Assembly: GCA_002746305.1 (NCBI GenBank)
Contig: NVWV01000004.1
Span: forward strand, 5,614-69,613
Direction: 5' to 3'
From: Bacteroidota bacterium
Lineage (GTDB): Bacteria > Bacteroidota > Bacteroidia > NS11-12g > UBA9320
Length of the DNA stretch: 64,000 nucleotides
Part shown: positions 5,057 through 50,232 of the stretch, piece after piece
Layout of the letters: every line of letters begins with the position of its first letter
Position numbering within the stretch: position 1 is the first letter of the stretch
Made by a program: the position numbers and the translations under genes
The notes under the pieces: model-generated
The model's input: the letters and a program-made list of their open reading frames with translations, nothing else
What the model was told of the DNA's origin: nothing
The model's database searches: none

Positions 5057-6058
5057 TTATTCTTCTTCGTCTATAATCTCAAGATTCCCTAAGAATTCTT
5101 TCAGATTCGTAATAATGGGGACATCCATTAAGTCTGATCCTAATTCATTTGCCAGATGAACCGATAACCAGTCCAAACGGTATATCACATCAAAAATAGA
5201 TTGAAGTGTATATTCTGGTATTTGAAGAGGAAGTACTTTGTTGTTTTCTAACTCTAAATGAGATATTAAGAAATCAAATCGTGCTTCAACACGGGGGTTT
5301 TTTGTTGAATACAACATAATGAAATTTGTATTCATTTTGTCGATGTAGCTCTCTATAACATTGTGATTTGCCTCGGGAAGTATATTAACAAAACCTTCTA
5401 GTTTGGAGTTCTCATTCAACTGTTGCGTGAAGCGAGTAGCTATAGGAGCAAACTCCCTATCACTTACAATTACAAATTTATTTCTGGCTGTGTTTTTGAA
5501 AAAATCAAATATACGAGAACCGCTTTCTTGCAGTCTGCCTAGTTGACTATCAAAGTGATTTTTAATACTTTCAAGTACTGGTCTTTGATCATCTTCCATC
5601 AATTCGCCCAAGATCATTGTAATGAAACTTAGACCAAAACCTACTGTCATACGAGGTTGGTAGCCATTTTTTAAATCATAGGTCTTGAGGTTGTTAGCTG
5701 TGGCTAATTCCTTAAGTTTTCCTCCTCCTGTGATTATTATTATCTTACATCCTTCGGCATTAGCCTCCTCAAAAAGACTTAAGGTTTCTTCAGTATTTCC
5801 TGAATAAGAATTGAGAACAACAAGTGTTTTTCTGCTTACATATTTGGGTAAGTGATAGTCAGCAACGGTCTCAATAGGGATTGGACATTTATCAAATAAC
5901 CAGTTTTTAGCTAGCACAGCTCCAATACCACTTCCGCCTAGTCCTCCTAAAATAATGTTATCAAAATCATCGACCCCTAGTCCATGGGATGAATAATTTT
6001 CTAGAACATATTGAAATTGTTCTGTGAAGTTATCTAATGATGTTTCGTGCGTTAACAT
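5057..6058 (-). CDS. Bifunctional phosphoglucose/phosphomannose isomerase (SIS domain, archaeal-type PGI/PMI)
   Basis: GLGGSGIG, SYSGNTEETL, TGGGKL, QPR, QLNENSK, PEANHN motifs. Confidence 0.85.
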   Translation of the reverse strand: MLTHETSLDNFTEQFQYVLENYSSHGLGVDDFDNIILGGLGGSGIGAVLAKNWLFDKCPIPIETVADYHLPKYVSRKTLVVLNSYSGNTEETLSLFEEANAEGCKIIIITGGGKLKELATANNLKTYDLKNGYQPRMTVGFGLSFITMILGELMEDDQRPVLESIKNHFDSQLGRLQESGSRIFDFFKNTARNKFVIVSDREFAPIATRFTQQLNENSKLEGFVNILPEANHNVIESYIDKMNTNFIMLYSTKNPRVEARFDFLISHLELENNKVLPLQIPEYTLQSIFDVIYRLDWLSVHLANELGSDLMDVPIITNLKEFLGNLEIIDEEE

Positions 6059-41093: not shown

Positions 41094-41214
41094 ACCATAA
41101 TTAGCTTCCTCCTAACCCTGGTTATTTCAATTCATTTTTATTCGTCAGAGTATTGTCATTTGTCTTGCGAGCTTGCAACCTTTTAGTTCTACAATGTCTA
41201 ATCTAATAACAGCT

Positions 41215-43590
41215 ATGAAAATAATATCCATACAAATTATCTTACTAGTTTTTTGTTTTCAATCTTCCAATTTACTATTTGCCCAGTACAATACTCCATC
41301 TCACTCTAAAGGTGTTTGTTATAAATTGGGAACGACTGAACATCTGGGAAAAGCAACTCTAAGCGAAGTACATATATTTAACGAATACACTACTACATTT
41401 TTTAAGAATGAAATTCAATCAAGTTGCCTAGATACGAATACTTCCGGAGGACACTATCAACTCAATAGTTCAGATACTGATTTCTATTTGACTGCTAACT
41501 TTAATTATACAATAAGAGTTATGGCTACAAACCCTGATGCGACTAATGATTTAGTAGCCTGTGCAGTCTGGCTAGACTTAAATGGTGATAGTGCTTTCTC
41601 TACAAGCGAACTCATATCCCCTGCTGCTTGGAAAGTGAAACCCGATGAATTTGCAGAGTTTTCTTTTGTAGTTCCCAACTCTATTAATACAGAGAATGCT
41701 CGAATGAGGATAAGAACAGAGAAAGGTTCTAACATCTCCACTCCTTCAGATTTTACAGGTACACTAGAATATGGCCAAACATTAGACGTCACTTATCGTC
41801 AATTTAATAAAACTCAATATGAAGCCAACTTTTGGGTATTAGATACTGCTTTTGTTGGATCACCTGTTTTCTTTTCCAATGCAAATGAGATAATTGATAG
41901 CGTAGGGTACATTTGGACTGTTGATGGTGCCCGCTATACTAATATCCATGAAGTCGTCCAAATTTTTGCATCTCCGGGAGCTTATGAAATAAAACTGGTA
42001 AGTTTTGATTCTACTACTAATCAAAAAGATAGTATCGTCAAAAACCTCGTGGTAGTTAGTGCCAATGAAGTGCCTATTCCCCGATTTAATATTCAACCCA
42101 AAACTATATCACTTAATGGTTCGGTTGACATAAATAGCATAAGTCAAAACTATGAATACTATAATAAGTATCGCATATCTCAAGATTCAATAGTTTATTA
42201 TTCGGAATCCAATTTCCCAAATTCATTTCCCTTTTGGCAAAGGACTATAGGTGGAAATCTTACTGGGGGTGCTTGGCAAGTCTGTATGAAGTCAGCTAAT
42301 CTACTTGACACATCGGATTGGTACTGTGAGGATCGTGCTTTGTATGTTGGTATAGACACCTTTGCTCCTGTTATCACCATTATTGGGATGAGTAACACCA
42401 CTATTAATGTATATACTTCTTATACTGACCAAGGAGCCTCAGCTTACGATGATAGTATGGGCGTAATAAATCATAGAATTACTACTTCAGGGACCGTTGA
42501 TACTAGTACCATCGGTGACTACACTATAACTTATACCGTGTCAGACACAGCGGGTAATACAACTACAGAAACAAGAATAGTTAGAGTAAGAGACTTGGAA
42601 ATGCCAGAGTTAACCTACTTAGGAACAGATACCTTATATCTAGAACAAGATTCAGTATTTACAAGTCCAGGTGCTTCTGTTGCAGATAATTATGATATAA
42701 ATTTAGATTCTTTAATTCAGCACATTACCAATATTGACATTACCGTAGCAGGGGTATATTGGGAGAAATTTTGGGTGACAGACTCTTCAGGCAACACTAG
42801 TGACACTCTTCATATAACCTTATATGTACTGTCAGATATGATGCCTCCAGTATTAACACTCATTGGTGCTTCCGATACCACCATAGAAGTTTATTCAATG
42901 TGGACTGACCCTGGAGTTATTGCAATAGACATTAAATACGGGGATATTTCTGACTCTGTTAGTGTCTCTGGTGGTGTAAATGTCAATATTCTCGAGGATT
43001 ATGTAATCACTTATAATGTTCGAGATAGTTATGGGAAGCCCAGCTCAATTACAAGAACCGTTCATGTAGTAGATACAGAAATTCCTGTAATCTCTAGTAA
43101 TAATGATAGTCTGATTAGGATTCTAGTCAACACTTCATATGACCCAAAAGATCATATTAAACTAACAGATAACTATGATCATCCAGATAGTCTTCAAAAG
43201 AATCTAACTATCATATATAACGATGTTGATGTAACTACTCTAGGGTTGTATTCTACCGTATTTCAAGTAGCAGATCGAAGTGGGAACGTATCAAATAACT
43301 TCACATTGTACACTAGTGTACAACAATCTTTAGGTATTAACGAGCTAGTGAATGACGAAGCATTCCTTCTTTATCCCAACCCAAGTTCAGGTAATGTTCA
43401 TATCAAATCTACTAACCAAAAACCCATAACCGAGATTACACTTGTCAATAGTTTGGGCCAAAAAATTTATAATGAGAGTTTTAATAGCCCTGAAGTACAA
43501 CTTGACTTGAATTCTTTGACTAGCGGTATGTATTTGGTGAAGATTAATTCCGATGGCGTTAGAATTAATAAAAAGCTGATTGTTAAGTAG
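41215..43590 (+). CDS. T9SS-secreted protein: GEVED-like domain, PKD, and four DUF5011-like Ig repeats
   Basis: Signal FA|Q; VWLDLNGD..F..SE, RMRIR, YGQTLD; repeated D..(A/P)PV.T..G...Y.D.GA.A.D..ITY.V.D..GN; CTD LYPNPS...GMYLV..KKLIVK. Start set at ATG 41215. Confidence 0.8.
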   Translation: MKIISIQIILLVFCFQSSNLLFAQYNTPSHSKGVCYKLGTTEHLGKATLSEVHIFNEYTTTFFKNEIQSSCLDTNTSGGHYQLNSSDTDFYLTANFNYTIRVMATNPDATNDLVACAVWLDLNGDSAFSTSELISPAAWKVKPDEFAEFSFVVPNSINTENARMRIRTEKGSNISTPSDFTGTLEYGQTLDVTYRQFNKTQYEANFWVLDTAFVGSPVFFSNANEIIDSVGYIWTVDGARYTNIHEVVQIFASPGAYEIKLVSFDSTTNQKDSIVKNLVVVSANEVPIPRFNIQPKTISLNGSVDINSISQNYEYYNKYRISQDSIVYYSESNFPNSFPFWQRTIGGNLTGGAWQVCMKSANLLDTSDWYCEDRALYVGIDTFAPVITIIGMSNTTINVYTSYTDQGASAYDDSMGVINHRITTSGTVDTSTIGDYTITYTVSDTAGNTTTETRIVRVRDLEMPELTYLGTDTLYLEQDSVFTSPGASVADNYDINLDSLIQHITNIDITVAGVYWEKFWVTDSSGNTSDTLHITLYVLSDMMPPVLTLIGASDTTIEVYSMWTDPGVIAIDIKYGDISDSVSVSGGVNVNILEDYVITYNVRDSYGKPSSITRTVHVVDTEIPVISSNNDSLIRILVNTSYDPKDHIKLTDNYDHPDSLQKNLTIIYNDVDVTTLGLYSTVFQVADRSGNVSNNFTLYTSVQQSLGINELVNDEAFLLYPNPSSGNVHIKSTNQKPITEITLVNSLGQKIYNESFNSPEVQLDLNSLTSGMYLVKINSDGVRINKKLIVK

Positions 43591-43626: not shown

Positions 43627-43779
43627 ACTCTCCGTTTTCAGAAGTAGCAGATTTATTATTTTTTAGAATAAATAATTCTTTTCATATAAGTTGTTTATCC
43701 ATAAGAATGTGTTTTTCACAAATTGTATCCATTTATAAACTGTGAATACCATACTGTTATTTTAATGCGTTCAGGTAAT

Positions 43780-44523
43780 ATGAAAATCTGTTTTTTGCTA
43801 TTGACATTCATTTTATGCCATAATACTGCTACCGCACAGAGGGATTCCATAGCATTAGAAGTGTTCGTGCTCTCGCCTTTTAATAATCAAACCTTTGATC
43901 TTTCGAGAAAAATTGGAGTTAAAATAGGAAACAAAACAAGTGAACATAAATTTTCTATAGCCTACAGCTGCTTAACAAATACATCCAATTGGAGTCATTT
44001 CTACAACGATAAATCTACTTCATGGACAAATAATGTACTTATCTTATATGACTATAGCGATACAACTCCTGCTCGATCAAGGAATGGTCAAATAGAGACA
44101 ATATCCCATGGAATAACGTTGGGATGGAGCCATGAGTCTGTTTATGGAAACGTATCCATTTATGGAGGAATAGGTCTAAGCGTATTTGTTAACCATATAA
44201 CGGTATTTCAAACCAGTTCAAACGCTTTTATATCTAAAGGAATGATTGACATTCTTCCACAGGGCATCAGCGTTGCGGAAGCAGGACTGAGGTATAAAGA
44301 TATAAAAATCACCTCAGATGTAAAGCTTAGATCCTTGGTTCCTGCGGTTAATTTTGAGAGTGGGATAGTTTTCAAGTGTGGTGCTAATTTTAAGTTGATT
44401 CCTATTTTGAATTGGGGGCTATATCTGCATGACAATCGAATAACATCAGGAGAGCTTTATGCAAGAAGAACTAATCTGAGGCTAGATTTAAGACCTGCTT
44501 TGCAGTTCTCATATGAAATTTAA
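43780..44523 (+). CDS. Hypothetical exported protein, possible outer-membrane beta-barrel
   Basis: Signal MKICFLLLTFILCHNTATA|Q; alternating amphipathic strands; C-terminal LQFSYEI. Confidence 0.55.
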   Translation: MKICFLLLTFILCHNTATAQRDSIALEVFVLSPFNNQTFDLSRKIGVKIGNKTSEHKFSIAYSCLTNTSNWSHFYNDKSTSWTNNVLILYDYSDTTPARSRNGQIETISHGITLGWSHESVYGNVSIYGGIGLSVFVNHITVFQTSSNAFISKGMIDILPQGISVAEAGLRYKDIKITSDVKLRSLVPAVNFESGIVFKCGANFKLIPILNWGLYLHDNRITSGELYARRTNLRLDLRPALQFSYEI

Positions 44524-44561: not shown

Positions 44562-45341
44562 CTAATCTCTCACCCCCAACATCCAACCCAAAACACCTTC
44601 ACATTTAGAAAGACAAGCAGGATAGAAATGCTTGTGGATTCTGGAGATAGTATTAGAACTAGGAGGAGATCCCCACCAAAACTCTGCCATGGAGATCGGT
44701 TTTAAATTATGTTGGTAGGCATATTGAAGTAATTTAGGAGCAGCACATTCTCCGGCACCAGAGGGGGGATTACTACCAAATATCTCATATGGGCTACGTA
44801 TTTCTCCATTGCAGTTCAAGAATTTGTAGGATTCAAATAATTGATGTTGCAAAGACTGGGACAGTGATTTGCGTTTTTCTTTGAGACTAAGAAGTTGAAG
44901 ATTGGCCTTACAACCTGCCAGTTGGAGCTCCTTTACCTCGTCATTAATCACTTTGAGTTGCTTCATGCCAGAGTTTAGAAATCCGTTGTCTACAAGTGAA
45001 TCATATACAGGAGGAACGAAATAGGAGTGGTGATTGCTGTTAGCCAATTTTCCGCTGAAAGCAGACAGAAAAGCGAGTTCCTTTTCGGGAGTTTGCACCA
45101 CCAGTACTCCAAACATCTTGCCAATGGCTTTGAGATTAACTCCTTCATTCCCAAAATCCAATCCAAAGTTATGTTTCCATTCTGTTTGACTTTTTAAATG
45201 TTCATGAAGTTGTTCAGATGCTGTTAAACACAATGGATGTGGCTCGTAATTGAAAGGGTCATTGAGTTGTTCAGGCAATGATATATCGCTTAAGTCTTTT
45301 TGAAAAGCAATGAGTTTATGCACGGTATTTTGTTTCGTCAT
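44562..45341 (-). CDS. Stand-alone TrcP-like N-terminal (cytidine deaminase-like) domain, without a pseudouridine synthase domain
   Basis: PF.YEPHPLC, GKMFGVLVV, AFSG, FVPPVYD, PPSGAGECAAPKLLQYAY, MAEFWWG, YPAC..KC motifs of the N-terminus of long RluA-fusion proteins. Stop follows immediately; no HRLD motif. Confidence 0.7.
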   Translation of the reverse strand: MTKQNTVHKLIAFQKDLSDISLPEQLNDPFNYEPHPLCLTASEQLHEHLKSQTEWKHNFGLDFGNEGVNLKAIGKMFGVLVVQTPEKELAFLSAFSGKLANSNHHSYFVPPVYDSLVDNGFLNSGMKQLKVINDEVKELQLAGCKANLQLLSLKEKRKSLSQSLQHQLFESYKFLNCNGEIRSPYEIFGSNPPSGAGECAAPKLLQYAYQHNLKPISMAEFWWGSPPSSNTISRIHKHFYPACLSKCEGVLGWMLGVRD

Positions 45342-45374
45342 CCTGAGTGGACCTGATAGCAATCGGGTCGAAGG
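45337..45374. repeat. REP-like element overlapping the start codon of the deaminase-like gene
   Basis: GTCATCCTGAGTGGA-CCTGATAGCAATCGGG-TCGAAGG has the same GTCAnnnTGAG..GTCGAA skeleton as 37164-37193, with an internal hairpin. Confidence 0.5.
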
Positions 45375-45439: not shown

Positions 45440-45922
45440 TTATTTTAACTTGACTGGAACCCAAACCTCTTCTTCTGAACTGAGGTCATTATTTTTGTAT
45501 TTAGGCCCCATTACCTGAAACATGACACGTGTGTCCGCTTGGTATTTTGAATTAGGTAGCCATTCAGTGTAAATATGCTGCATCAAGTGTTGTAGCTCTT
45601 TCTGTTGCCCTTTCAATAGAAAAACAACATAGGTGCTAGGCTCTAGAATTATGTCCTCCATACCGTCAGGAATAACCTCTAAATCAGAAACTTCTACAGC
45701 AGCCCATGCAGTAAACAAAGTCTGTGCTTGGATATTTTCGTATGCAACTGAAGAATCATAGTCTTGCATTGCAAAAAGGTCAGAGCTAATTGCATTTGTA
45801 ATCTCTTTTCTTCGTGGCATAAATGAACTCCACAACTTGAAAATTTGATTATTGGCCATCGTCATTGGGAGGTTCATCCCAATAAAATAACGAGTAGGTA
45901 TATTTTCAATACGTAAATACAA
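45440..45922 (-). CDS. GyrI-like small-molecule-binding domain protein
   Basis: LWSSFMPR, WAAVEV, IPDGM, YVVF..KG, IYTEWLPNS.Y, EEEVWVPV. Confidence 0.85.
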   Translation of the reverse strand: MYLRIENIPTRYFIGMNLPMTMANNQIFKLWSSFMPRRKEITNAISSDLFAMQDYDSSVAYENIQAQTLFTAWAAVEVSDLEVIPDGMEDIILEPSTYVVFLLKGQQKELQHLMQHIYTEWLPNSKYQADTRVMFQVMGPKYKNNDLSSEEEVWVPVKLK

Positions 45923-45925
45923 GAT

Positions 45926-46513
45926 TTATTGTTTTTGGATGATCAGAATAGTGTCCTTGGGAACATTTTTTATAAAGTGCTCTTTAAGAGTAACGGCTAA
46001 TTTAATAGTGGAATCGGAGTTTTCAATTGTTACAGATCCTGGAATTATTTCATTCTCCAAACGCAAAATAGGATATTTTTTTTCGAAGATGAGTAGCTTT
46101 CCTTCTACGAGGGTGTAAATGCCTTTAGGAGACATTGGGCGGGAAAGTTCTCTCAATTCAAAAGTTTCATTTTTAGCAATGGGTTTGTTTATCTCAAATG
46201 GGATGTAAAATGTCATACCAATCAATAATCCCCCAAAACCTCCAACGAAAATGGATATGGTAAAAAATATTGGAAGGATAATATAGATTCTAAAGTACTT
46301 AGGGACAGAAGTCTTCTTGGTGAAACTCATTACCATGATTATTATTCCAGATACAAAAGTACCTGTCGCAATAACCAATCTGATAGTTTGTATTAATTCA
46401 ATTGATGTAGTCCAGATTAGAAGCAAGTTGGCAATAAATAAGAACAGTAGAATGAAATGAAGTCGAATGAATATTCTAAGTGAATTCTTCATTGGTTCTA
46501 CTAAATTTCTCAT
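45926..46513 (-). CDS. Hypothetical membrane protein
   Basis: 3-4 N-terminal TM helices plus a soluble C-terminus; tightly packed between rlmF and the GyrI-like gene. Confidence 0.55.
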   Translation of the reverse strand: MRNLVEPMKNSLRIFIRLHFILLFLFIANLLLIWTTSIELIQTIRLVIATGTFVSGIIIMVMSFTKKTSVPKYFRIYIILPIFFTISIFVGGFGGLLIGMTFYIPFEINKPIAKNETFELRELSRPMSPKGIYTLVEGKLLIFEKKYPILRLENEIIPGSVTIENSDSTIKLAVTLKEHFIKNVPKDTILIIQKQ

Positions 46514-46530: not shown

Positions 46531-47505
46531 TTACTTATCCGTTTCTTGAGACTCTCTTCTCCATTGTTTTCTTCTTCCTCTGGAATGAAAGGACCATGCA
46601 ACGATTCGACTGCTCTTATTGCCTTGTCCCATAGGAATAGTCTCAACATCATAAGCTTCTACCTTCTTTAAAGCTAAATATATGTCTTGTAAGTTCCCAT
46701 GCTTGCTCACCAAAGTACTAAACCAGAGTACTTGCTCTTTAAACTCTACACTCTCTTTCACCATGTCCTTTATAAATCGAAGCTCACCTCCCTTGCACCA
46801 CAGTTCATTGTGCTGCCCACCAAAACTCGTATTTGGTTTCTCAGGCTTTTTGCCTCTTAGATTTTTAAGCTTACGTAGATTACTGGATATGGCTTCGGCC
46901 TCTGAAGCGTGAAAAGGAGGATTACAAACAGTCAAATCAAAATATTCGTCCTTTTGAATAATGCCTCGAAATAGATTTTTAGCATCTTCCTGATGACGGA
47001 TATCCACATCGAGTTGGTTTGCATGTGAAATGGCTTGTGCAGTTTTAATGGAAATAGGGTCTATATCACTAGCTACGAACTTCCAATTGTACTCACAGAC
47101 ACCAATGATAGGGTAAATGCAGTTTGCTCCCGTACCAATGTCTAAACAATGAGTGTTTTGACCTCGAGGTATACGCCTGTTATCATCGTTAGCAAGTAAG
47201 TCTGCTATATAGTGTATGTAATCAGCTCTTCCTGGAATTGGGGGGCATAGATAACCTTCTGGAATATCCCAATGTTCAATGTCATAGTCGAATTTTAGCA
47301 GTGATTGATTGAGCAGTTTTACTGCTGTAGCATCAAAAAAGTTGATCGTTTCAATACCATATTTATTCAGAGCCACGTGATTCCCCAGTTCAGGAGTCTG
47401 TTCTATAAGTTTCTTAAAATTGTAACGGTGTTTGTGCTTGTTACGGCGGTGTAATTTGCTTTTTACAGCGGTAGGGCTAGGCGTTGGCTTCTGTTCTTGT
47501 GGCAT
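46531..47505 (-). CDS. rlmF: 23S rRNA (adenine1618-N6)-methyltransferase
   Basis: LH.RNKH..RY.F, LCPPIPGRADYIH, LDIGTGANCIYP, CNPPFH, GGE..F, MGQGNK.SR..AWSF. Start set at ATG 47505 because the TTG at 47517 lies inside a TATCTTTG promoter box. Confidence 0.93.
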   Translation of the reverse strand: MPQEQKPTPSPTAVKSKLHRRNKHKHRYNFKKLIEQTPELGNHVALNKYGIETINFFDATAVKLLNQSLLKFDYDIEHWDIPEGYLCPPIPGRADYIHYIADLLANDDNRRIPRGQNTHCLDIGTGANCIYPIIGVCEYNWKFVASDIDPISIKTAQAISHANQLDVDIRHQEDAKNLFRGIIQKDEYFDLTVCNPPFHASEAEAISSNLRKLKNLRGKKPEKPNTSFGGQHNELWCKGGELRFIKDMVKESVEFKEQVLWFSTLVSKHGNLQDIYLALKKVEAYDVETIPMGQGNKSSRIVAWSFHSRGRRKQWRRESQETDK

Positions 47506-47571
47506 TTGGTCCAGCAAAGATAGCAGGAAGCTCCAAGTATGTAATGCAGTATTTGTAATAGAAAACCTACT

Positions 47572-50232
47572 CTAAAAATCAAACCAGCTTCTACGTCGGT
47601 TGAGTTTGAGGTCTTGCAGGGTGCTTGACTTCACTTTAATGCCAAATTCAAACATTTGTCTCCCAATGGGGAACCATTTAAGTCTCATTTCCCAGCAGTG
47701 CAGGTTTCTGTGAAAGTCTAAGGAGGTGATGGTTACTTTCTTATTGGTAATATCGTAACCACTATTTACGCCTATTTTCCAGTTTTCACTTAGTTTAATA
47801 TCTCCAGCAAATGAAAAGCCTTGTGAAATAACTTTTTCAAGCAGGGCTGGAGTGTTAGCCTCGAAATTATAGTTAATTCTTAGGCTCCAAGGAAGATTAA
47901 AATCTACATAATCACCCAAGTGGTTGTTAATGTATTCCAATTCCTCATCATTCACATTTTCTGAAGTTTTTTTCTTTAATGCTTGTGGATTTAGGTCGGT
48001 AGAAATGGATATTCGACTTTTGGTAAAATATCCTAATTTATTCATTCTATTCAGTGCGAACTCATTCACCCTTCTGTGAGAATTTGTTCCTGTTAGTTCG
48101 TAAGCATACGGATCAAAAGTGGTATTAAATGTCATTCTAATCTTGTTAAGAATGGTTGTGTTGGCATTTATACTAATCTTACTTAGATGGAATGAATCTG
48201 CTAGGAAATTGTAACCACTTCTGATATTTAGACTTTCAATAATCTTGACTTTCTTTACTCCACCATTGGCGGTGTCTTTTGGTGCAGCCACCTTGATTTC
48301 AAGGTTGTTTCCTAGACCAAAATTTAGTGATCCTTGTGGTCCACTACTGGGTCTTCCCAAGAGTCCATTTTCATAGATAGAGTAGGATCTGGCAACTTTT
48401 CCAGAGTCTATGTAAGTACGGTAGCCATTCTTTTCGCCAGTGCTGAAGTCAGGATTCCATACAGCCGAGATGTTGGGTCTTACAACATGGCGTATAGCTC
48501 TTAATTTATGACCTTTTTTAAAGTTTTTGGTTCCATACAGAATAGTACTTATACCAATAGATGTTCTGTAAGAATATGCACGAGCAAAACCGTTTATATT
48601 GTTGTCTGTAAATACTGAAGTATCTGCCGAGTCCCATGACTTTTCAGTTGTCTTAAAATACCAGTATTCATTGAAACTAAAACCTGGAGATACTGTCACC
48701 CATTTAAGAGCTTTAAATGATGTACTAACCGGAATAGAATGGCTTACTCCATTTCTAAAATCGTCCCAAAGGTTTGGTGTTCCTGCAGGTGGTGATTTCC
48801 CAAATATTTCTCCAACCCCAGAAACTAAAACGGTGTCCACAGTCCTTATTTCATTTCTTAATGTACCTTGATACGAAACACCTAGGTTTCTCATAAAGCT
48901 CTGTAGTGTTTTACTCTTAGGAGATTTAAATTTCTTAAAAAGCATTTGTCTACTTACACTGGCAGTAAGCTGTGGCAAGGTCATCGTTAAACTTCCAGTG
49001 GTCAAGTTTTGATTCATATTCGAGACTAAACTTAGGTTAAGCTTGCGATTGAAAAGACCTTTACTATATGAAATACTAGAATTTGAGTTAGTACTAATGA
49101 TATCCTGATAGTTAGTAGTGTTGTTTTTTAAGAAGCTACTGGTCACAAAGTTGACGTTGGCAGAAAAATTACTGCCTGGTTTTGCTTTAGAATCTCTTCG
49201 GTATGACCACTTGAGTTTATAGTCATTGGATACTTTAAAAGAAGGAGCTTCTGGTTCTCCAAATTGGTTTCGATTAAAACTAAATTGAAGTTGCCCTCTG
49301 TATCTATACTTTCGGTAATACTTGGAACGGATAGTGGCACCCCAACTTCCTCTAAAGTAAATGTCTGTAGACAGTTGTACGTCAAAATAGTCATTCACAG
49401 GGATATAGTATCCCAGTCCTCTTAGATTAAAACCACGCTCTTGAGACTCCCCAAAAGTAGGAAAGAGAATCCCATGTTTTCTTTTGTCTGGAATAGGGAA
49501 AAAACCAAATGGAACAAAAAGTGGTGTATTAATACCAGCAATTACTAAGTTAGCAGGACCTGTTACGATCTGCTTCTTTGGGATTACCTTGATTTTATCT
49601 GCTTTTATATAAAAGTGTGGTTCAGGCAGATTGCACGTGGTAAATTTTGCATCTTTCACATAGATGTTTTCATGGCTGTCTCTCAATACTCGTCTTCCAT
49701 GAATATATCCATCCTTCTCCTTAGTAAGTACTCCATATGAGATTCCTTTTTTGCTCTCAAAATTGTACTTCATGGTGTCAGCTTCGTATATTTTTCCATT
49801 ATCCTCGAAAGCTGGTCTGCCAACATATTTTTTAGTGGTGTCGTTGATTATACCAGTAGCAAAAACATCCTTTTTATCAAAGTCAATGACAATGTATTCC
49901 GCATTTAGTTTTATTTCATCAAAGAAGATTTTAGCATTGCCATATAGGTATGCCTTCTTTTCCTGAAGATTCAAGATAATAGAGTCATCCGCCTCGTACT
50001 CCACGTTGTTATCGAGAGATGATTTATGATTTCTTATAGAAAATCCAATGCTGTCATTTCCTATACTATCTAGGGTGTAAGTGGAGTCGGATAAAATAGC
50101 AAGAGAAGAATCTTGAGATTGTGCTGACGCTAAAAAAGGTGTACAAAATAAGAAACAAATTACAAGGACTCGTTGAAACAAAAGTGACTGATAGTTAGTC
50201 ACTTGAAGATATGTTTGATTAGAATTGTTCAA
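47572..50232 (-). CDS. lptD: Putative LPS assembly protein LptD (Bacteroidota type)
   Basis: Y.A.DSI..LYG.A.I, FTTC..PHF, PFGFFP, RNLHCWEM..W.P, KSS.LQDLK; divergent from amidase-MlaD as is usual in this phylum. Confidence 0.85.
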   Translation of the reverse strand: MNNSNQTYLQVTNYQSLLFQRVLVICFLFCTPFLASAQSQDSSLAILSDSTYTLDSIGNDSIGFSIRNHKSSLDNNVEYEADDSIILNLQEKKAYLYGNAKIFFDEIKLNAEYIVIDFDKKDVFATGIINDTTKKYVGRPAFEDNGKIYEADTMKYNFESKKGISYGVLTKEKDGYIHGRRVLRDSHENIYVKDAKFTTCNLPEPHFYIKADKIKVIPKKQIVTGPANLVIAGINTPLFVPFGFFPIPDKRKHGILFPTFGESQERGFNLRGLGYYIPVNDYFDVQLSTDIYFRGSWGATIRSKYYRKYRYRGQLQFSFNRNQFGEPEAPSFKVSNDYKLKWSYRRDSKAKPGSNFSANVNFVTSSFLKNNTTNYQDIISTNSNSSISYSKGLFNRKLNLSLVSNMNQNLTTGSLTMTLPQLTASVSRQMLFKKFKSPKSKTLQSFMRNLGVSYQGTLRNEIRTVDTVLVSGVGEIFGKSPPAGTPNLWDDFRNGVSHSIPVSTSFKALKWVTVSPGFSFNEYWYFKTTEKSWDSADTSVFTDNNINGFARAYSYRTSIGISTILYGTKNFKKGHKLRAIRHVVRPNISAVWNPDFSTGEKNGYRTYIDSGKVARSYSIYENGLLGRPSSGPQGSLNFGLGNNLEIKVAAPKDTANGGVKKVKIIESLNIRSGYNFLADSFHLSKISINANTTILNKIRMTFNTTFDPYAYELTGTNSHRRVNEFALNRMNKLGYFTKSRISISTDLNPQALKKKTSENVNDEELEYINNHLGDYVDFNLPWSLRINYNFEANTPALLEKVISQGFSFAGDIKLSENWKIGVNSGYDITNKKVTITSLDFHRNLHCWEMRLKWFPIGRQMFEFGIKVKSSTLQDLKLNRRRSWFDF

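Follow-up and report, generated by a model that had tools for sequence, protein, structure and literature searches.

C-to-U RNA editing in bacteria is known from a single enzyme, TrcP of Vibrio cholerae (VCA0104; Kimura et al. 2022, PMC9553926), and trcP was still called Vibrio-specific in a 2025 paper (PMC12588516). As described by its discoverers, TrcP is built from a cytidine deaminase (CDA) domain in two halves (residues 1-114 and 250-339), a long helical domain (LHL) and an RluA-family pseudouridine synthase (PUS) domain. The protein contains zinc, its editing depends on C282, C324 and C328, and E303 has been proposed as the catalytic residue. The N-terminal domain (NTD) alone fully turns C32 of tRNA-Tyr into U in vitro, and not into pseudouridine, while the NTD and C-terminal domain (CTD) supplied as separate proteins yield no pseudouridine. 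A basic patch by the LHL tip (R168, R171, K172, R175, K201 and K208) is required both for tRNA-Tyr binding and for editing. The authors state that every TrcP homolog has both NTD and CTD, and read this as evidence that the two act jointly (PMC9553926). Here, we analyzed a 64,000-nucleotide stretch of a Bacteroidota genome (hereafter the window; positions 5,614 to 69,613 of contig NVWV01000004.1, assembly GCA_002746305.1) and found a gene that, judged from its sequence, encodes a true and conserved member of the TrcP deaminase-domain family that stands alone and keeps its active site intact.

The gene lies on the minus strand at 44562..45341 and encodes 259 amino acids from an ATG, stop included; a TTG seven codons upstream is an alternative start that would give 266 amino acids (44562..45362, minus strand). 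An original prediction, made from the DNA letters alone, had described a protein of about this length carrying the motifs GKMFGVLVV, AFSG, FVPPVYD, PPSGAGECAAPKLL, AEFWWG and YPACLSKC, and all of these are present in the 259-residue translation. BLASTP alignment to P0237, a 563-residue Vibrio protein named 'RluA family' that served as our reference fusion, revealed that residues 13-149 match its residues 11-146 (46% identity, E = 3e-39) and residues 147-255 match its residues 230-340 (58% identity, E = 1e-42). This similarity is far beyond chance, and the homology to the TrcP deaminase domain that had been proposed in the prediction held for both halves. A Crocinitomicaceae fusion (P0149) is 40% identical over 94% of the query, with a 95-column gap in the helical region. 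The N-terminal CDA half spans residues 20-122 (44976..45284, minus strand; HNFG, GKMFGVL, AFSGK and FVPPVYD; N-half hidden Markov model (HMM), 160 bits) and the C-terminal half, with the predicted active site, residues 166-255 (44577..44846, minus strand; C-half HMM, 147 bits). Between them sits a short helical hairpin, the remnant of the LHL (residues 123-165; 44847..44975, minus strand).

The predicted active site follows the published TrcP set (PMC9553926). The Cys and Glu positions of P0237 (C286, E307, C328 and C332) are the published C282, E303, C324 and C328 shifted by +4, and they align to C199, E220, C243 and C247 of the window protein. Alignment and a structural model together assign the Cys199 codon (44745..44747) as the counterpart of the zinc ligand C282, the Glu220 codon (44682..44684) as that of the catalytic glutamate E303, and Cys243-x3-Cys247 (44601..44615, all on the minus strand) as the counterparts of the zinc ligands C324 and C328. 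The spacing (C-21-E and CxxxC) matches that of TrcP (PMC9553926), and the helical insertion falls at the same point. None of the four residues varies across 40 stand-alone homologs (50-65% identity to the window protein), and 49 further positions are equally invariant; the C...CxxxC set, noted as intact in the prediction, is therefore conserved together with the glutamate.

What the window protein lacks is equally clear in alignment. Residues 147-229 of P0237 have no counterpart in it, and a Pfam search for PF00849 (PseudoU_synth_2) found no synthase domain. Relative to TrcP, about 85-95 LHL residues and the entire PUS domain are missing, which leaves 259 amino acids instead of about 560 and a helical insert of 44 amino acids instead of the median 129 found in fusions; the absence of the synthase and an insert of about 45 residues had both been correctly predicted. 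As aligned, the window protein amounts to both CDA halves of TrcP, minus most of the LHL and minus the synthase. The basic LHL tip needed for tRNA-Tyr binding (PMC9553926) is among the missing parts. Because the PUS domain and this tRNA-tethering tip are both gone, neither TrcP nor pseudouridine synthase is a suitable label for the protein. The closest described form is the engineered TrcP-NTD (residues 1-350), likewise a deaminase without a synthase, which makes U32 and no pseudouridine in vitro (PMC9553926); the engineered form keeps the full LHL, whereas the natural window protein has lost most of it. Short-LHL fusions (463-508 amino acids) show the reverse combination, with the same short hairpin but with the PUS domain kept. 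The hairpin carries a net charge of +4 in the window protein (median +2), and R157 within it is invariant in the 40-homolog alignment.

An AlphaFold2 model built on a 40-row alignment (predicted local distance difference test score, pLDDT, 91.6; predicted template modeling score, pTM, 0.89) places a two-helix hairpin (121-141 and 147-171) sticking out from an alpha/beta core. In the model, C199 stands just before helix 200-210, C243 and C247 open helix 244-254, and E220 lies in strand 214-224. The predicted site differs in detail from that of the blasticidin-S deaminase/cytidine deaminase fold, to which the window protein has no sequence similarity: its glutamate lies within a strand instead of following the first ligand by two residues, and its second motif is CxxxC rather than PCxxC. 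Zinc deaminases that are small or stand alone also include the tRNA base editors TadA/ADAT and archaeal CDAT8, but these belong to the canonical CMP_dCMP deaminase family, for which the window protein has no Pfam match; nor was any CMP_dCMP-type family common to the 40 members at E ≤ 10. A profile search against PDB sequences returned coiled-coil noise only (E ≥ 0.33) and no sequence relative. An ESM Atlas structure search returned family members only, namely proteins of 286 and 346/356 amino acids without PUS and a 565-residue PUS fusion (TM score 0.92 by query).

The stand-alone form is not a recent truncation; it is conserved and under purifying selection. The window's own genome (100% complete, 22 contigs) contains one deaminase copy and no fused trcP. 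It has five PF00849 genes, called by NCBIfam as RluD-like, two short RluA-subfamily members (240 and 260 amino acids), RluB/F-like and RluE-like. Three of these match the TrcP C-terminal-domain profile, scoring 123, 110 and 99 bits where real fusions have a median of 276, and by this profile there is no TrcP-type PUS anywhere in the genome. Within the genus, the gene is present in 14 of 24 other genomes, and 12 of the 14 copies are uninterrupted full-length stand-alone frames (250-321 amino acids), the other two being a frame broken by an in-frame TGA and a copy that runs off its contig; it was found in none of 16 genomes of the neighbouring family. The window copy is 59-64% identical to its genus relatives. 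dN/dS among genus orthologs was 0.07-0.22 (13 pairs with measurable dS, in a set where two loci duplicate others and dS is saturated for every pair with the window copy).

The pattern extends well beyond the genus. The 80 reference-genome loci divide into 57 stand-alone genes (3 running off a contig end), 17 long fusions, 5 short-hairpin fusions and 1 cut locus, and the stand-alone ones include Pedobacter, Chitinophaga, Dyadobacter and Pontibacter. Apart from the 3 cut by contig ends, the 57 stand-alone loci have conserved ends and a short C-terminal tail. The suggestion that such genes might be recent truncations among relatives that all carry the full fusion is contradicted by these counts, and a conserved synthase-less group of the kind the original prediction looked for does exist. 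The idea of a split gene was rejected as well, on the finding of no RluA-type PUS open reading frame (ORF) of at least 70 amino acids within 4 kb at any of the 57 stand-alone loci, and of no TrcP-type PUS in the window's own genome. A sample of 400 high-quality genomes of the phylum held 14 with fusions, 1 with a stand-alone gene and 1 with an odd partial match, so the stand-alone form is a minority in genomes but abundant in metagenomes. One genus relative also carries a second, partial deaminase copy (G001:C73:6026-6307), probably a decaying duplicate; it covers residues 163-257, is interrupted by one in-frame TGA and lies 2.2 kb away from the complete gene.

We next considered the family as a whole. 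Near-length homologs (142-454 amino acids) numbered 2961 at E ≤ 1e-3 among 3200 candidates, and longer ones (455-2000 amino acids) at least 7728 at the same threshold. Among the matches listed, 120 of 120 near-length homologs had no Pfam domain, and 120 of 120 long homologs had PF00849. Many stand-alone homologs bear the name 'pseudouridylate synthase' or 'tRNA pseudouridine32 synthase' at NCBI/JGI despite the absence of PF00849 in the 120 listed, a name apparently transferred from the fusions. When the top 150 representatives of 50%-identity clusters were dissected with HMMs, they sorted into long LHL with PUS (95), long LHL without PUS (about 337-360 amino acids; 27), short LHL without PUS (18), short LHL with PUS (5), intermediate (2), long LHL with an unexplained tail (2) and partial (1). 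The long-LHL architecture without PUS (representatives P0243-P0380; Atlas clusters of 346 and 356 amino acids; contigs up to 25 kb) is scattered on the tree, with 19 changes for 22 rows, and part of this set may be split or truncated gene calls. Short-hairpin fusions that keep PUS (463-508 amino acids, inserts of 21-48) come from Myxococcota, Gemmatimonadota, Rikenellaceae and Sediminitomix flava, which indicates that LHL shortening and PUS loss are separable, independent events. These fusions are found at loci L139, L141-L143 and L146, with the S. flava protein (P0304) at 481 amino acids; in L142 (Cystobacter) the PUS part is split across two frames.

A FastTree phylogeny of 210 core sequences placed 63 of 69 short stand-alone rows in one 72-row clade (SH-like support 71) and scattered the other 6. 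The clade also holds 6 long-LHL rows without PUS, 2 intermediates and 1 short fusion, contains no long-LHL fusion and is nested among Bacteroidota fusions. Resolution on the 190 columns was poor: 96 of 207 FastTree branches were open, as were 45 of 94 in a quick IQ-TREE run on 97 rows, and the label changes needed were 12 (at least 4 forced by starred branches) and 9 (at least 3 forced), respectively. Because the trees are poorly resolved, we claim one dominant clade and not one origin; a single origin of the stand-alone form is not claimed, several label changes being forced. On these alignments, a dominant old PUS-less lineage appears to exist, and PUS loss plausibly came before LHL shortening.

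We tentatively propose that the window protein, like the TrcP NTD, is a zinc-dependent C-to-U deaminase of RNA whose end product is U, with a tRNA anticodon loop as its most likely target, and give this proposal somewhat short of an even chance. Such an enzyme would convert a cytidine in the anticodon loop to uridine and stop there, with no coupled pseudouridylation. Position 32 would be the default target, C32 of tRNA-Tyr(GUA) being the sole precedent. Catalysis would follow TrcP, with the three cysteines holding Zn, Glu220 acting as proton shuttle and water giving the oxygen. Because the basic LHL tip is gone, recognition would have to come from the globular domain together with the short basic hairpin, and may differ from that of TrcP; the RNA substrate and its target site are inferred as well. 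In line with this reading, a PADLOC search gave no hit for the protein. A more ambitious form of this proposal, which we consider possible if doubtful, is a compact (about 250 amino acids), self-sufficient RNA C-to-U editor, widespread in Bacteroidota, that recognizes RNA without the arm and has a target set of its own, either a number of tRNAs, or rRNA in concert with ribosome-biogenesis genes of the rlmF and DeaD types.

Several observations weigh against a tRNA editor of this kind. The gene is dispensable, since it occurs in only 14 of the 24 other genus genomes and was not found in four that are 97-100% complete. When TrcP residues are mapped by the +4 offset, the deleted segment would cover the basic patch from R168 to K208 (PMC9553926), a point to which the original prediction gave no weight. 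No Pfam or NCBIfam family matched the window protein, and Pfam yielded no consistent family for 40 members even at E ≤ 10. Foldseek comparison of the model, with the hairpin left in, against the PDB gave 0 of 500 listed matches at E ≤ 1e-3 (best E 0.86), with no deaminase among the best 50 rows. The TrcP authors' own deaminase matches, the nearest being blasticidin-S deaminase and cytidine deaminase (PDB 3oj6 and 4eg2), are reported to have appeared only once the helical domain was removed (PMC9553926), and the Foldseek outcome for our predicted model neither confirms nor refutes a deaminase fold. Finally, tRNA-Tyr carries C32 (loop CTGTAAA) in all 10 genus genomes that have the deaminase and a recovered tRNA-Tyr gene, and equally in all 9 genomes in which the deaminase is absent or of unknown status.

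That tRNA comparison took in four tRNAs of one cluster and a few Ser genes; Gly(TCC) and two Thr genes were likewise identical between genomes with and without the deaminase. The window's own genome has a single tRNA-Tyr(GUA) gene, with C32 in the loop CUGUAAA. Because C32 is present with and without the deaminase, the tRNA genes give no substrate signal, and C32 in the tRNA-Tyr gene is permissive only. In every RNA run, only a small share (0.07-0.09) of the tRNA-cluster locus was represented, by assembled contigs of relatives that probably derive from precursors or DNA. No G>A was listed at L020:1550 (the C32 position) in the covering RNA contigs, which drop minority variants and come from relatives whose deaminase status is not established; for these reasons and their probable precursor or DNA origin, the contigs are uninformative.

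Gene context is mildly RNA-flavoured. In the genus, rlmF directly adjoins the deaminase at 5 of 11 loci and LptD does so at 4 of 11. Adjacency to rlmF also occurs in two distant stand-alone lineages, one in which rlmF overlaps the deaminase start (L083) and one with the order reversed (L095); the link to rlmF that the original prediction drew from this locus is real, then, but partial. Across the stand-alone reference loci, 14 of 57 have rlmF, truA or a DeaD/DbpA-type helicase within 4 kb. The genes truA, DUF4293, the deaminase and a DeaD/DbpA-type helicase stand together at six loci, five of them in Pedobacter and one in an unclassified Bacteroidota. At 8 of 57 loci (five named Pedobacter, one Sphingobacteriaceae and two unclassified Bacteroidota), a DeaD-type helicase is encoded within 4 kb, and the DbpA rRNA-binding domain was confirmed in the one helicase scanned (L091).

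These neighbours, together with the deleted LHL tip, raise the possibility that loss of the tip accompanied a change of substrate, and that the protein is an RNA cytidine deaminase whose target lies outside the anticodon loop, for example in rRNA during ribosome biogenesis or in another structured RNA. The rlmF-type genes that recur beside the deaminase (5 of 11 genus loci, L083 and L095) encode 23S rRNA methyltransferases, and the DeaD-type helicases (8 of 57 loci) fit the same picture. We nevertheless consider a target of this type unlikely. The adjacency is partial (14 of 57 loci), and we know of no bacterial rRNA C-to-U editing, although no literature search aimed at it was made. RluA has dual specificity, with the 23S helix-35 loop as its second target, but the site this suggests, the equivalent of position 746, is already T in the genome. 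Another reading would divide TrcP between two enzymes, with the deaminase making U32 in tRNA-Tyr and a separate RluA-subfamily synthase converting it to pseudouridine. The genome does encode two short RluA-subfamily synthases (240 and 260 amino acids), and the edited loop UUGUAAA would fit the RluA consensus psi-U-x-x-A-A-A. Both synthases are unlike the TrcP CTD, however, scoring 110 and 99 bits against its profile, and they are genus core genes, near-universal with or without the deaminase, such that there is no co-occurrence signal and neither looks like a dedicated partner. With no RluA-type PUS nearby at any of the 57 stand-alone loci, with the TrcP halves yielding no pseudouridine when supplied separately, and with V. 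cholerae RluA described as not ordinarily targeting tRNA-Tyr (PMC9553926), the evidence counts against the prediction's suggestion of action in trans with an RluA-type enzyme, and we regard this arrangement as distinctly improbable.

Nor need the substrate be RNA at all. A deaminase of free nucleosides or nucleotides, or of a cytosine-containing antibiotic such as blasticidin S, would be in keeping with the structural analogues reported for the TrcP CDA core (PMC9553926), with the truncated RNA-tethering arm and with the GyrI-like small-molecule-binding protein encoded immediately upstream in this genome. That neighbour, however, is found at 0 of 12 related loci, the recurrent neighbours being RNA enzymes; the sole characterised family member edits tRNA; and the hairpin keeps its positive charge (+4, median +2) and an invariant R157. 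A small-molecule deaminase is therefore improbable. Least credible to us, and very improbable, is a non-catalytic remnant, either an RNA-binding or regulatory protein without chemistry or a decaying truncation of a fusion gene. The accessory distribution of the gene (14 of 24 genus genomes) and the modest identity of the window copy to its genus relatives (59-64%) could be read this way, but decay is hard to reconcile with four catalytic residues invariant in 40 of 40 homologs, dN/dS of 0.07-0.22, conserved ends and a short C-terminal tail across stand-alone loci, and a 72-row clade that gathers 63 of 69 stand-alone rows with only one PUS-bearing row.

If the RNA C-to-U deaminase proposed here is active, editing would be uncoupled from pseudouridylation and would involve a new mode of RNA recognition, testable in tractable soil and water bacteria. 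If it is a compact editor with its own targets, bacterial RNA editing would be far more common than the lone example from Vibrio implies. A stepwise reduction, from fusion through synthase loss to arm shortening, would then be recorded in the family, and RNA base editing would gain a natural scaffold of very small size. Across thousands of database proteins and 57 reference-genome loci, cultured genera included, only the deaminase is kept, with an intact predicted active site, and the existence of this stand-alone family runs against the published statement that all homologs carry both domains (PMC9553926). We found no description of stand-alone TrcP-type deaminases in the literature searched, although supplementary data 7-8 of that paper (4862 BLAST hits; PMC9553926) may include short homologs. 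On the practical side, proteins without a synthase domain are currently labelled 'pseudouridylate synthase'.

The deaminase is the last gene of a minus-strand run ordered LptD_2, rlmF, a 195-residue protein, a GyrI-like protein and the deaminase. The rlmF-type RNA methyltransferase (46531..47517; PF05971, 383 bits), two genes upstream of the deaminase, had been taken as the head of this run; it does belong to the run but is not its first gene, because the LptD_2 protein (47572..50232) precedes it. The 195-residue protein without a family (45926..46513) lies between rlmF and the deaminase, whose immediate upstream neighbour is the GyrI-like/Cass2-type protein (45440..45922). Neither of these two genes has a counterpart in 12 related loci, and their interposition between rlmF and the deaminase was seen in this genome only, which suggests a local insertion into an LptD-rlmF-deaminase arrangement. 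Downstream, 12 residues separate the last Cys (C247) from the deaminase C-terminus, a short tail as predicted, though not the 10 residues given. The convergent gene said to start 38 nucleotides further on is at that distance, but it ends there rather than starts: it is a 266-residue ORF on the plus strand (43723..44523). This ORF has a signal-peptide-like start and no Pfam family, and no counterpart stands beside the deaminase in relatives. A scan for sigma-70 promoters and terminators, which does not model Bacteroidota promoters, found sites no commoner than in shuffled sequence.

Three further features were noted in passing. An 805-residue surface protein at 41173-43590 (plus strand), with GEVED, three bacterial Ig-like domains and a type-IX secretion sorting tail, is ordinary for Bacteroidota. 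Elsewhere in the same genome, ARAGORN called a 'tRNA-SeC(tca)' at C4:177420-177491, right after tRNA-Ala in an rRNA operon spacer, the start of the 23S region probably having been miscalled as a tRNA. At C10:258754-260531, 18 tRNA genes lie on one strand within 1.8 kb and duplicate many core tRNAs with divergent stems, an array that looks like a mobile or phage-type element.

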